Shown piece by piece: positions 593 through 55,100 of a stretch of DNA of 59,846 nt; position 1 is the first letter of the stretch, and the number at the start of each line of letters is the position of its first letter. The position numbers and the translations under genes were made by a program. The notes under the pieces were generated by a model that was given only the letters and a program-made list of their open reading frames with translations, was not told the DNA's origin and searched no databases. Source of the DNA: Euglena gracilis (taxonomy: Eukaryota). The stretch covers positions 6,173,693-6,233,538 of the forward strand of contig CP154954.1 of NCBI GenBank assembly GCA_039621445.1, in the 5' to 3' direction.

Positions 593-1900
593 GGGGCGTA
601 GATGGTGGACTCCCACGTGACCTGCCGCTGGCCGGCCCACGCCTGCGCGTACGGCACCGCCTGCCCCTCCGGCCCGACGCACTGCCAGTCGCCGAGTGAC
701 AGCCGGCTGTCCCCCCGGGCACCCCCAGGGCAGGCCGGGCTGAGCACCCACAGACACGCGTGCTGCCCCGGGGGGAACTGCCGCCTCACAGGTCAGCGGG
801 TACCAGGAACGCTGACACTTTCCCGGGCGGAAACAAGCCGGATACCCGCCCCTCCTGGTCCCCCACCGCCCTGGGGGGGGGGGGGCAAGCCAGCACCTTT
901 TCTTTAGCCAGCACACAGGACCCCCCCCCAGGGTCTCCTCAAGAAAACGCTTGCTGTCATGCTGGAAAAAAGGTGCTGGCTGAACAGGAGTAGGGACGAG
1001 GTCACGACCAAATGCTCACATTTTTCAAAAACACCACCCCACTCCTGGGGGGGGGGGGGTCCCTCCTGCCCACACACCCAAAATCCAGCCAAAATCGGCT
1101 GAGAACCCCTGAACAAAAAATTCTGGCCCGGCCTTCCAGCCTGGCCCTCCAAAAGCGCAAAAGTTTGACTCATGGCACACCCCACCCCTCGGGAGGTGAG
1201 GTAACTTGGACCCTCAAAAAAAAAAAAAGACGGAAAAAAACACAGGAAAAAAAACATCAAAAACCCACAAATAAACGCAAAAAGACGCCAGCAGCATTTA
1301 AATTCCTTCAGGTGCATCCTCGAGATAATTTAGTTGTTTCACCTTCTCTGGGGTAAAAAATTTTTCATGGAACTAAACTTTGCTGCGTTTCGATTGGATT
1401 TTGGAAGCATGTTGTTTCTAAATCATGCAATTTGTTGTCCAAATTACAAAATTTGAGAAAAAATTGGTCTCATGGATAAAAATCGGGATCAAAGGGTGAC
1501 ATTTTTCCAAGCCAAAACACATTCTCCACATATAAAAACACATTTGTGTCACCCCCTCCTGTTTGTACTAAAAAAAAAAACTCAATCAGCAAAACTAGCA
1601 GGAAGGATAGTTGACTGAAGACAGCGATTCCACGACAATATCGGCCCACGAAGAACATGAAATTGCAGGAGTTTTTAGGCGCCGGGGTTCAGTGACGGCT
1701 CCGGGTTCCACCATGAGACCGGGTCCAGTTCAGGGACATGCACACATCCCCCGCCTGATCCCCCGCCCTTTCCGGCCCACCCTGTGCCTGGTGGTACTCC
1801 GGCATCATGGGGCTGTCGGGGTTGGCGAAGGCAGCGAGGACGGCCTCGATGTCCGCCCCCGGGACAAACACCGCCCGCAGGCAGTGTTGCCCGCCGCACT
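593..1900 (-). CDS. VASt domain 2, N-terminal part
   Basis: [33 protein letters not shown]...[13 protein letters not shown] parallels domain 1 (AYHKERGD...W...[13 protein letters not shown]). Confidence 0.72.
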
Positions 1901-52100: not shown

Positions 52101-55100
52101 TCCAAAAGATTTAAAACCCTTGTTGTTTAATATCAGCATCGCTGTCCAAAAGGTTCTCTATTTTTTCAAAAAGGTTCAAAATCCTGGAGGGTAAACACCC
52201 CCACTTATAAAACACCCCTACCTATGAACCCCCCCACCTAAAGCCCCCCCTCGGGCCGACCAACCAAACCGGGACCTATAAACCCCCCCTTCAGGGAAGA
52301 AAAATGAAAACCGCCGGGGACGATTTTTTCGGCCGCAAACCACCCCAAAACTGATTTTTTGGCAATTTTTTGACACCTACCATTATCAAAAATGCCATTT
52401 TTGACCAAATTTGGCAAAAATTACCAATTTGGGGGGTTTCGGGGTCATTTTGCCCCCCCCCCCTCGGCCGACCAACAAAACCGGATCCATTAACCCCCGG
52501 GGGTTTATAAGTCGGGGGGGGGGGGTTACGTAGCAGGATAGAAACACGCAAACATCAACAGTTTTCCTGGACTGCCTGCCGACAACCAGGCTGCAAAGCT
52601 TTCGCAAATTGCCGGCTCTCAACATGCAGGGCAGAGCCAGGGTCCAGGTCAAACAGGGAAGAAGGTTTCGTTCAGCGCCGGGATGACGTTCTCGGGCAGG
52701 AGTGTGGCGTTGGGAAGCGTCTTGAGGCGCATCACCAGTTGCCGCGTGAAGTCACGCCCCTCTGTTGAGAACCATCCGCCACTCGCCCAAACACCCCAAC
52801 AGTGATTCCCTTGAAAAATTGTAAATTCCTGGTATTTTCCACGTTTGATCATCTGAGAATACCTTCAACCAAACCTTGAGACAGCCAGGAGGGCAACTTT
52901 GTCATAAATTCACAAAATTGGGCAGGTTCCAGAGTTATAAATGCAAGGGTGCAAATTCCGCCATGTCCCACAATTTTGGGTGTAAACACCTAAATCTGAT
53001 CCGGTTGTGTTCACCAGCCAGATAACCCACCCTCCCGATGTTTCCTGTTTCCTGCAAAGGATCAAACCCTTCTCAGTTGCTCCGTGATGACTGACGATGG
53101 TACGTGGCTGGACGCACACTTGGCACGCCTGACTACCACCCCTTCTTTCAAAGGTTTCGTCCCACAAATCAGTTGACCAGGTTGCCCAACCATTTGGTCA
53201 GGCCGTCTTAAGCAAAAGTGCACCTCTACGCATTGGAATTTGCATATAAGTGCATCCCCAACGTCAGGGCTTTAAGTTTATTTTATGAGTTAAAAAGTTT
53301 GGGACACCTGGGGTTTGCAAGTGGAAATTTGTGGGACAGCTTGAGCAACTGCTGATGTGCTTCTCTTGAAACTTTTCAAAATATTTGAAAATTAGGACGC
53401 GACGTTGAGGTGCATTTTTCCCCGCCCTGAAAAAATTAAAGGACCTTGCGCAGTTTAGAAATTGCACTCCATTTCAATTACTTTTGCTTTGAACCCTTCA
53501 AATTTTTTTGGTATCAGTTTTTTTTTTGGGTTTTGTGGCAGCCACCCACCTTAATCCTAACCCCATGCCTAACCTGAACCCTGTCTGGAACCCTAACCCT
53601 ATCTCTAAACAACATATTTGTGCGAATTTGGTTGGCCTACAGTCTCATGGTGGGGGAGGGGGGCGGCAGCTCGCCCGCAACCCCAATACCAAAATCCTTT
53701 TGTGTGTGGGAAGCAAGCCTTCCACGGGTAAACGCTGTTGTGCATGGGCAAATGCTGATGATGATAACCCTAATGCTAACTGTAACCCAACCCTTGACTG
53801 GAGTTTGGATAAGAAATTTTTTTTGCAAAATGAAGACAAGGCTTACAAAGGTAAACTCTGTTAATAGGTGAAGTCCCCAAGGCCACAATTTCTGTGAGAT
53901 TTTTCGCATTTTTGTGCGCGATGAAATGTCATAGAAAACACCACTTTTGGCAATTCTTTAACCGTTGAAATTGTTTTCTTTTTTTTTACGAAACCGGTGT
54001 TTGGAGGGGGGCATTTTGATTTCTAATTTAGACCCTTATGCCCCTCCCCCGTGCAAATTCCCCTTCTGACGACCAACCAAACCAGTTCAAACCTACTTAT
54101 TTTTACATAAAAGAAATGCCTGGGGGCAACCACCCCTTCGGAAGAGCATGGCCGGCCTCTTCTGCCATGGTCATCATGCGGTTCATCTGGTTGCGGATCA
54201 CGCCCTGGATGGCATGCACCTGCCCCCGGCCGGCCGTCAGCTGCGCATCCTCGCTCTGCCGTTGCTGCCCCGCAAATGTGTCATCTGTCATGGAGGTTTC
54301 CTGTCATTTTTTGCCATCATTGCTTGCTGGCAGATAACGCTCATGCCATTTTTTTTGCTGGGTCTAAGTGGGACGGCACACGTCTTAGGCGGCCTAACTC
54401 GCAATTAGCTTTGAAAGTGACTGTACCCCCCCTTTATTTGACCCCCCCCTTAATTGAGCATTTGGGTCTGGGGAAATTTTTTGTTCATGGGCTGGCGCCG
54501 AAAAAAAATTTTGCCCTCTCTCTAAAGGAATTTTTGATCCCCCCCCCCTATTTGACCCCCTCTGCACGGCCAGTGGGTGAGGAAATACATTGCGCCGAAG
54601 CGCAAAACAATGATACAAAAAATGAGAAGTGCAAACAGGCGGCTGACGTGTAATCTGAATGAACAAGCATTGCATTATGTAGGCATGTCCATTGCGCTTC
54701 GGTGCAATGACACCGTAACATCAGAGGGACTGCCATAAGCCCAGGGGGCTTCTGTGTTACATGTGTTAAATGCGCTTAAGCGCAACAATTTTACATTGCG
54801 CTTAAGCACAAGGTAAAACTATTGCGCTTAAGCGCAATGTCCATAAACATTGCCTTCTGTACCCGGCAGTGTGGGGCCTGGCGTAGCTCACCAGACGTTG
54901 GGACAGGTCCCTGGGCTTGCCCTCAATTTCCCCAACCCCCTCACCTGGGTGGTTCCCGCTGTACCGCTCCTCGCACTTCAAGCACCCAGGGATCACAACT
55001 CTGTGACATGCCATTTTCCCAATTTTTCACAACGTGCATGTAGAGTCCACCCTCTAGATGCCTCAGCAGGCAACCCTTCACGGACACGTCGCAGAGCCCA

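Follow-up and report, generated by a model that had tools for sequence, protein, structure and literature searches.

Why are the nonconventional introns of euglenids cut where they are? The question is raised by a stretch of 59,846 nucleotides of Euglena gracilis nuclear DNA (GenBank assembly GCA_039621445.1, contig CP154954.1, positions 6,173,693 to 6,233,538; this whole stretch is called the window below), which holds two intron-rich genes and several small elements of the MITE type (miniature inverted-repeat transposable elements). A preliminary description of this DNA, made from its letters, had noted that the cuts lie 3 nt outside one end of a terminal helix and 5 nt outside the other, and that 3 + 5 equals the 8-bp target-site duplication of some transposons, so that a MITE landing in an exon would be an intron at once. 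Neither the geometry nor the thought of a MITE source is new; the arithmetic link between 3 + 5 and the duplication length is that description's own contribution. The splicing code itself, 5'-N3CDG-/-CH'GN5-6↓R-3' (arrows mark splice junctions), has been defined by knock-in mutagenesis (Nomura et al. 2025, PMC12501133). In the same study a 5' spacer of exactly 3 nt was required, a 3' spacer of 5 nt was preferred, 6 tolerated and 4 partly tolerated, and CTG-CAG and CGG-CCG variants were functional too.

The answer that the window gives comes mainly from the second of its genes, which is encoded on the minus strand.

Gene 2: 25189..56205, minus strand, receptor-type adenylate cyclase-like, 29 exons, 850 codons.

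A protein search with the 69-aa translation of one minus-strand exon returned EG_transcript_1068 (P0002, 700 aa), an E. gracilis transcript protein with the adenylate-cyclase domain PF00211, at 100% identity, together with a paralog, EG_transcript_936 (P0003, 855 aa). Between 51457 and 25189, 25 exon blocks of the minus strand match P0002 letter for letter and delimit 24 introns (I1 to I24), for each of which a small range of protein-compatible junctions was allowed. Four further introns upstream (U1 to U4) follow from RNA joints and from P0003, bringing the total to 28, and the coding sequence of this model is one open frame of 2553 nt whose sole stop is terminal. The gene is therefore longer than the preliminary description had it: by ending at 52767 instead of 56205, it missed two introns and two exons. 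Its figure of about 30 introns lacking GT-AG was fair, 26 gene-2 introns lying inside 593-52767 and the rest being predictions in gene 1.

For transcript support, four public runs were mapped onto 45300-58900 as reads and contigs, the RNA runs including X16 and X21 and the DNA runs being X1 and X2. Four RNA joints, 45349>46387 (I6), 50867>51119 (I2), 52747>54154 (U2) and 54281>56118 (U1), are each carried by 3-4 raw RNA reads of X21 and by one 1383-nt X16 contig, and are absent from both DNA runs. The X16 contig contains 0 letters other than those of the window exons. Between 48315 and 54154 it has 356 exonic nt, as does the model, which fixes the summed length of U3 and U4. P0002, the four joints and this contig arithmetic together establish that the gene-2 introns are removed from the mature mRNA. 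The mRNA 5' end at 56205 is the loose end of the X16 contig. There (region 56118-56205, the first exon ending at 56205) the contig bears a short A-run followed by adapter letters; the A-run would fit what we presume to be a trans-spliced leader junction of gene 2.

The intron that bears most directly on the question is I1, which coincides with an element that we call M2.

M2: 51152..51443, no strand assigned, 292 bp, termini CAT.../CAG..., 13/14 complementary.
M2 duplication GTCCAGCC: left copy 51144..51151, right copy 51444..51451, no strand assigned, 8/8 identical.
I1: 51147..51446, minus strand, 300 nt, GAC-CAG...ATG-GGCTG↓G, whole MITE M2 plus one duplicate copy.

M2 serves as an entire intron, which is out of the RNA yet in the DNA. 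I1 consists of M2 and one copy of the duplicate, and is missing from P0002; P0002 and the paralog P0003 align without a gap across its site. The 356 nt of the X16 contig correspond to removal of I1, whereas 656 nt would be expected if M2 were retained. The genomic site was seen in its filled form only in both DNA runs. Unitigs of X1 (50717-51177 and 51423-52147) and of X2 (50717-51176 and 51423-52218) lead from unique flank through the duplicate into M2 without branching, and there is therefore no sign of an empty allele, which would cause a branch. The terminal inverted repeats of M2 form the helix required by the splicing code, and an end-to-end fold of the I1 RNA scores -193 kcal/mol (z=-6.3 versus shuffles). 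Each duplicate copy is cut at the same place, between its bases 5 and 6; therefore the element leaves together with 8 nt and the sequence is restored. The scarless removal that had been deduced from 3 + 5 = 8 is thus borne out at this intron.

Is the 8-bp duplication a regular property of such elements? The scan considered all CA...TG terminus pairs 40-5000 bp apart and kept those with at least 12/14 complementary terminal bases; without the CA..TG restriction it was swamped by the 25.6-kb microsatellite. Among the 216 pairs that passed, 5 have perfect flanking direct repeats of length 8, and perfect repeats of 5, 6, 7, 9, 10, 11 or 12 bp occur in 0. One of the five perfect cases proved to be a microsatellite artefact and was rejected as spurious. 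The real elements are four with a perfect 8-bp repeat (M1, M2, M4 and M5) and one with 7/8 (M3), all with 12-13/14 complementary terminal bases. CA..TG elements flanked by exactly 8 bp are accordingly present in the window, as had been claimed.

M1: 9805..10086, no strand assigned, 282 bp, 8/8 duplication ATCACATC at 9797-9804 and 10087-10094.
M3: 37689..38082, no strand assigned, 394 bp, duplication 7/8, nested in intron I11.
M4: 45608..46014, no strand assigned, 407 bp, perfect duplication CCCCGGGT, nested in intron I6.
M5: 7064..7928, no strand assigned, 865 bp, perfect duplication CTCACCCC, gene-1 region, probably intronic.
Third M3/M4-family copy, decayed: 28329..28700, no strand assigned, nested in intron I21, right end lost.
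M2-family copy, diverged full-length (66%): about 12122..12430, no strand assigned, nested in predicted gene-1 intron 11380-12531, duplication decayed (3/8).

To judge by their sequence, the elements look like foldback MITEs assembled from common modules. M3 and M4 belong to one family (70% identity over about 400 bp), and both, like the third copy, lie within larger gene-2 introns; M1 and M2 lie within coding sequence. The DNA k-mer depth of M2 is about three orders of magnitude above that of its unique flanks, depth not being a copy number. For M1 and M5, a second full copy was not found within the window. Two of the five elements begin with CAT rather than CAG. There are also shorter similarities: I12 holds a 40-nt internal module in common with M1; 27-40-nt matches link the otherwise unrelated M1, M2 and I12; and G-run/C-run modules with small GC palindromes recur inside M1, M2, M3, M4, I12 and many other places.

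As for the superfamily, an 8-bp duplication with CAG-type termini is typical of hAT transposons, and the duplication around the window elements has this length. M1 fits the hAT terminal pattern as we understand it, and CAGGC- and CATAC-type ends fit it only in part; not one of the five duplicates combines the two halves of what we take to be the hAT target pattern. Compared with hAT-type MITEs, then, the elements share duplication length and CAG-type termini and differ in that two start with CAT and that the target consensus is not clearly matched. Membership in hAT fits as a candidate assignment. The chances are evenly balanced that the elements are instead MITEs of another superfamily making 8-bp duplications, for instance P-like or Merlin-like, for which the CAT starts, the unclear target fit and the Merlin families known from E. 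gracilis speak, and against which stands the combination of CAG-type termini and 8 bp regarded as characteristic of hAT. Merlin families with 8-bp duplications and GG termini have been reported in E. gracilis (PMC8101967), and in the accessible part of the literature Merlin was the sole superfamily with 8-bp duplications that we found reported for this species. The window elements share the duplication length and the organism with these families but end in CA..TG, not in GG (PMC8101967).

M1 offers a second candidate for an exonic insertion, in gene 1, where the following introns are predicted.

Predicted gene-1 intron: 9800..10089, minus strand, 290 nt, GAT-CAG...CTG-GATGT↓G, whole M1 plus one duplicate copy.
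Predicted gene-1 intron: 11380..12531, minus strand, 1152 nt, CAG..CTG 3+5, duplicate 5/8 (chance level), holds the M2-family copy.
Predicted gene-1 intron: 721..1787, minus strand, 1067 nt, GCA-CAG...CTG-GGGGT, 13-pair terminal stem, duplicate 2/8.

The ends of the predicted intron 9800-10089 agree exactly with the published code, and both flanks of M1 score as coding. When the 290 nt (M1 plus duplicate) are taken out, the joined flanks can be read without a stop in two frames out of three, the coding-like one among them. These features suggest that M1 would be spliced from gene 1 as M2 is from gene 2. The rule alone, run over gene 1, yields 4899 candidate introns and is therefore not specific without transcripts. 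The restoration of reading frames through conserved motifs by this rule, of which the preliminary description had given four instances, is confirmed by P0002 for TAG↓DSFM, DYY↓GPVVN and FR↓EVD; EYHQ↓ARGD (721-1787), with ideal ends and the 13-pair stem, is a predicted junction. On the minus strand, a coding-like open stretch that starts with methionines (14223-14396) is a possible first exon of gene 1.

We then consider the splice geometry of all 28 gene-2 introns. A GT/GC-AG register among the transcript-allowed junctions is lacking in 27/28, I20 being the sole gene-2 intron that can be read both ways, as GC-AG and by the nonconventional code. Counting only junctions that the transcript evidence permits, three terminal pairs at +4..+6/-8..-6 (the 3+5 geometry) are present in 23/28 introns, against 2-3/28 with a 3' spacer of 1-4 or 6 nt and 2-5/28 with a 5' spacer of 0-2 or 4 nt. 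Weaker secondary peaks appear at 3' spacers of 7 and 9 (12 and 9 introns) and, with the 5' spacer varied, two and four positions further in (15 and 12 introns). The strict published motif occurs at 3+5 in 16/28 introns and at any other spacing in 0-2. The assignment to the euglenid nonconventional type, made earlier on inspection, is upheld by the missing GT-AG (27/28) and by the 3+5 pairing (23/28). The exceptions to 3+5 are three 3+6 introns (U1, U4 and I17), two of which have the strict motif, one 3+4 intron (I6) and one imperfect motif (I12). These 3+6 and 3+4 cases match the 3'-spacer tolerance found by knock-in mutagenesis (PMC12501133).

The junctions themselves are also alike. In the chosen register, the first downstream exon base is a purine in 28/28 introns. 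In the 24 gene-2 introns with 3+5, both junctions share the pattern pyrimidine↓purine-N-C at corresponding places in the putative duplicate, with a pyrimidine at position 5 in 18/24 and 20/24 (at the two junctions), a purine at position 6 in 22/24 and 24/24, and a C at position 8 in 19/24 and 12/24. This common pattern could reflect a target-site preference or an enzyme preference. CAGGC, CAGGG and CAGAG at intron 5' ends resemble MITE termini. The introns other than I1, all on the minus strand, are as follows.

U1: 54283..56118, minus strand, 1836 nt, 3+6, TAT..ATG; RNA joint in X21 and X16, absent in DNA runs.
U2: 52748..54153, minus strand, 1406 nt, 3+5, CAT..GTG, 10-pair stem; RNA joint.
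U3: 51679..52650, minus strand, 972 nt, 3+5, inverted motif CTG..CAG; P0003 alignment and rule.
U4: 51530..51610, minus strand, 81 nt, 3+6, CGG..CCG; length forced by contig arithmetic and paralog.
I2: 50868..51118, minus strand, 251 nt, CAG..CTG 3+5; RNA joint.
I3: 48316..50787, minus strand, 2472 nt, TGG..CCG 3+5; P0002.
I4: 47767..48167, minus strand, 401 nt, CAG..CTG 3+5; P0002.
I5: 46496..47752, minus strand, 1257 nt, CAG..CTG 3+5; P0002.
I6: 45350..46386, minus strand, 1037 nt, 3+4, TCG..CGA, 8-pair stem; fixed by RNA joint.
I7: 44901..45285, minus strand, 385 nt, CAG..CTG 3+5; P0002.
I8: 44532..44821, minus strand, 290 nt, CGG..CCG 3+5; P0002.
I9: 39544..44458, minus strand, 4915 nt, AGG..CCT 3+5; P0002.
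I10: 38810..39451, minus strand, 642 nt, CTG..CGG 3+5; P0002.
I11: 36278..38788, minus strand, 2511 nt, CAG..CTG 3+5; P0002.
I12: 35648..36135, minus strand, 488 nt, imperfect CAC..ATG, duplicate 6/8; P0002.
I13: 35278..35581, minus strand, 304 nt, TGG..CCA 3+5; P0002.
I14: 34646..35162, minus strand, 517 nt, CAG..CTG 3+5; P0002.
I15: 33767..34568, minus strand, 802 nt, CAG..CTG 3+5, duplicate 5/8 (chance level); P0002.
I16: 33177..33592, minus strand, 416 nt, CAG..CTG 3+5; P0002.
I17: 32991..33144, minus strand, 154 nt, CAG..CTG 3+6; P0002.
I18: 31441..32929, minus strand, 1489 nt, CAG..CTG 3+5; P0002.
I19: 30847..31335, minus strand, 489 nt, CAG..CTG 3+5, duplicate 7/8; P0002.
I20: 29764..30697, minus strand, 934 nt, CAG..CTG 3+5, also GC-AG; P0002.
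I21: 28161..29714, minus strand, 1554 nt, CAG..CTG 3+5; P0002.
I22: 27785..28021, minus strand, 237 nt, TGG..CCG 3+5; P0002.
I23: 26043..27744, minus strand, 1702 nt, CAG..CTG 3+5, duplicate 6/8; P0002.
I24: 25292..25913, minus strand, 622 nt, CAG..CTG 3+5; P0002.

We consider it probable that the introns follow the published code and that a subset of them are young CA..TG MITEs with an 8-bp duplication, which are removed without a scar. A young non-autonomous MITE with CA..TG termini would insert in an exon and duplicate exactly 8 bp of its target. Its terminal inverted repeats would supply the end-to-end helix for the splicing machinery, and cuts 3 nt before and 5 nt after this helix would strike both duplicate copies at one and the same position. 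As the cuts are at equal positions of the duplicate, the element would be removed together with one duplicate, and the mRNA would be restored letter for letter. The equality 3 + 5 = 8 would be what allows such insertions to turn into introns immediately. The relation between spacer sum and duplication length may well be causal, either as a co-adaptation or as a filter on the transposons that survive in exons, and older introns lacking a recognisable duplicate would have arisen in the same way.

How far does a trace of the duplicate persist? Seven minus-strand introns (51147-51446, 9800-10089, 30847-31335, 26043-27744, 35648-36135, 33767-34568 and 11380-12531) had been arranged as an age series; their ends are as first given, and identities of 8, 8, 7, 6, 6, 5 and 5 of 8 were reproduced exactly. 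For the statistics each intron was anchored on its helix, the 8 nt preceding the 5' arm were compared with the 8 nt that follow the 3' arm, and the permutation control consisted of cross-paired introns, which preserves the junction consensus; I1 was set by hand to its terminal-repeat register ahead of the final statistics. Over all 28 gene-2 introns, identity is at least 6/8 in 4 versus 0.52 expected (p=0.002) and at least 7/8 in 2 versus 0.11 expected (p=0.01), with a mean of 2.89 versus 2.53 expected (p=0.08). Identity along the splice diagonal (24 introns) is 0.385 within 8 positions versus 0.26 outside, and 0.335 versus 0.258 when I1 and I19 are left out; the junction pattern pyrimidine↓purine-N-C raises chance identity to 2.65/8, which explains much of the remaining diagonal excess. 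The excess of 8-nt repeats at this register, which had been proposed as a genome-wide test, is seen in these 28 introns at 6/8 and above, but is not significant without the two best introns. What holds of the age series is two clear young gene-2 introns (I1 and I19), M1 in gene 1, and the marginal I12 and I23; its lower end does not hold.

A number of results weigh against the reading of the introns as MITE insertions, or limit it. When I1 and I19 are omitted, mean identity is 2.54 versus 2.47 (p=0.42), with at least 6/8 in 2 versus 0.44 expected (p=0.08), and without the top four introns it is 2.25 versus 2.43, which is not significant. Residual duplicate signal is absent from 24/28 gene-2 introns, identities of 5/8 are at chance level, and duplicate identity shows no correlation with the integrity of the terminal repeats (rho=-0.06). 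Four introns have a spacer sum of 9 or 7 instead of 8, and therefore the machinery does not count exactly 8. The 3' motif of I1 is ATG, not C-H-G, and lies outside the strict code, yet I1 is spliced. Its joint is not among the joints listed, and the evidence for its removal is the protein together with the contig arithmetic. A transposase or dimerisation domain was not detected, 0 Pfam families being hit by 10 open reading frames chosen from the longest outside microsatellites. Protein searches with the gene-1 single exons 451-720 and 11218-11379 gave no match, and for this reason the gene-1 introns remain predictions. For 593-10592, a search of public runs listed no RNA run. Finally, the sample is small, one 60-kb window.

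Several of these points would be expected if the equality were a coincidence or a mere filter, that is, if 3+5 came from an RNA enzyme unrelated to transposons, most introns had another origin, and a few MITEs were tolerated thanks to their 8-bp duplication. The 24/28 introns without a trace and the missing correlation with repeat integrity agree with this account, as does the tolerance of the 3' spacer for 5-6 and partly 4 nt (PMC12501133), of which the 3+6 and 3+4 introns of the window are examples; a conversion between intron types has moreover been proposed (PMC3935182). Against it, the spacers sum exactly to a duplication length that was measured independently in the same window, one consensus stands at homologous duplicate positions of both junctions, intron 5' ends (CAGGC, CAGGG, CAGAG) are like MITE termini, and an 8-nt repeat flanks a newly gained E. 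agilis intron (PMC4770533). On balance we regard coincidence or filtering as unlikely, though as the most serious competitor of the insertion account.

Far less credible is a reading of the junction repeats as traces of double-strand-break repair with filler DNA and not as target-site duplications. Break repair has been suggested to account for the 8-nt repeat at the newly gained gapC intron (PMC4770533), but in the window the insertions are repeated elements that carry terminal inverted repeats and in some cases have relatives elsewhere in the window; the flanking repeats keep to a length of 8, lengths of 5-7 or 9-12 being absent, and the DNA depth of M2 is very high. Equally improbable is a polymorphism artefact, in which the mRNA would come from an allele or duplicate gene without the MITE and nothing would be spliced: the I1 joint is indeed not displayed directly, and transcript protein and DNA assemblies stem from different data sets, but the unitigs of two DNA runs pass unbranched through the duplicate into M2, the RNA contig equals the window exons with 0 other letters, and P0002 is 100% identical over 700 aa.

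The insertion account can be pushed further. Tentatively, and with rather less than even confidence, we suggest that nonconventional splicing is an RNA-level reversal of the integration of one transposon family, and that most nonconventional introns are decayed MITEs with 8-bp duplications. Whenever a MITE of this kind newly inserted in an exon, the phenotype would then be unaffected from the start, which would explain the preponderance of nonconventional over conventional introns (71.8% in E. agilis) and the single consensus at both junctions. If 3+5 is the MITE duplication length, the junction-repeat introns left aside as a nuisance in the study of the splicing code (PMC12501133) hold the informative part: their repeats would date insertions and identify source families. 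Scarless intron gain would be explained without a pre-existing splice signal in the host gene, and the MITE-origin hypothesis (2013) would become quantitative and testable genome-wide.

The window contains other repeats, several of them in or near the introns. The copies at 48920-49360 (I3) and 31999-32364 (I18) are 88-91% identical and contain 10-nt A-rich tandem units; DNA depth is very high in bins over the I3 copy (48932-49839), and another repeat is common to I3 and 15623-15994. A repeat of about 170-215 nt (81-83% identity) is found in intron U3 (51679-52650), at 18948-19154 and at 56351-56520, just upstream of gene 2. Long GT/CA-type microsatellites lie in or near introns at 5836-6286, 10880-11193, 12645-13408, 25577-25858 and 45087-45231. 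An assembly gap of 833 N occupies 59008-59840.

How does this locus compare with known systems? The splice geometry, the proposal of a MITE origin, junction repeats that resemble duplications and the 8-nt repeat beside a newly gained intron have all been published before. A MITE origin was proposed from inverted repeats by Milanowski et al. 2014 (PMC3935182), whose available text states that no transposable elements had been identified in euglenids by then, and which also put forward conversion between intron types. The recently gained gapC intron of one E. agilis strain has eight-nucleotide direct repeats, read as possible double-strand-break repair (Milanowski et al. 2016, PMC4770533). In a 2024 review (PMC11282704), CAG/CTG at +4-6/-8-6 are treated as terminal inverted repeats, and duplication-like junction repeats are mentioned; according to it, nonconventional introns leave as full-length circular RNA, after conventional introns and without a U1-type spliceosome. 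In E. agilis, junction direct repeats render 84.4% of introns 'slidable', and these were left out of the motif analysis (PMC12501133); the accessible part of that paper calls the origin of the introns unclear and names MITE-like elements as a possible source. In the literature found on nonconventional introns together with MITEs, target-site duplications, hAT or introners, which comprised text without figures, supplements or most subscription journals, there was no equation of 3+5 with an 8-bp duplication, and literature of the same scope named no Euglena MITE families acting as introns.

The window introns share with the euglenid nonconventional introns described so far their ends, pairing, 3 + 5-6 spacers and purine exon start (PMC12501133, PMC3935182). 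The window adds no difference in kind, apart from I1 and I12 bearing a 3' ATG outside the strict code, and I20 belongs to the 'both' class (nonconventional and GC-AG) of PMC12501133. With the material behind the MITE-origin hypothesis (PMC3935182, PMC4770533, PMC11282704), it shares inverted end repeats, junction direct repeats and the 8-nt repeat. The available portions of those papers name no transposon family, whereas the window has concrete repeated elements with 8-bp duplications, either nested in introns or forming whole introns.

The introner elements of Amoebophrya (PMC7789003) are likewise non-autonomous, carry inverted and direct repeats and populate genes as introns; their direct repeats measure 3-5 nt, versus 8 bp in the window. 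Owing to the direct repeat, introner elements have ambiguous junctions and are removed exactly, a property shared by the window elements. The introner elements of Micromonas and Aureococcus, reportedly described by Huff in 2016, are said to use spliceosomal GT-AG sites. Such sites, made up from element and duplication, are found neither at I1 nor at the predicted M1 intron of gene 1. Unlike in GT-AG introners, the signal in Euglena is a terminal helix with fixed spacers.

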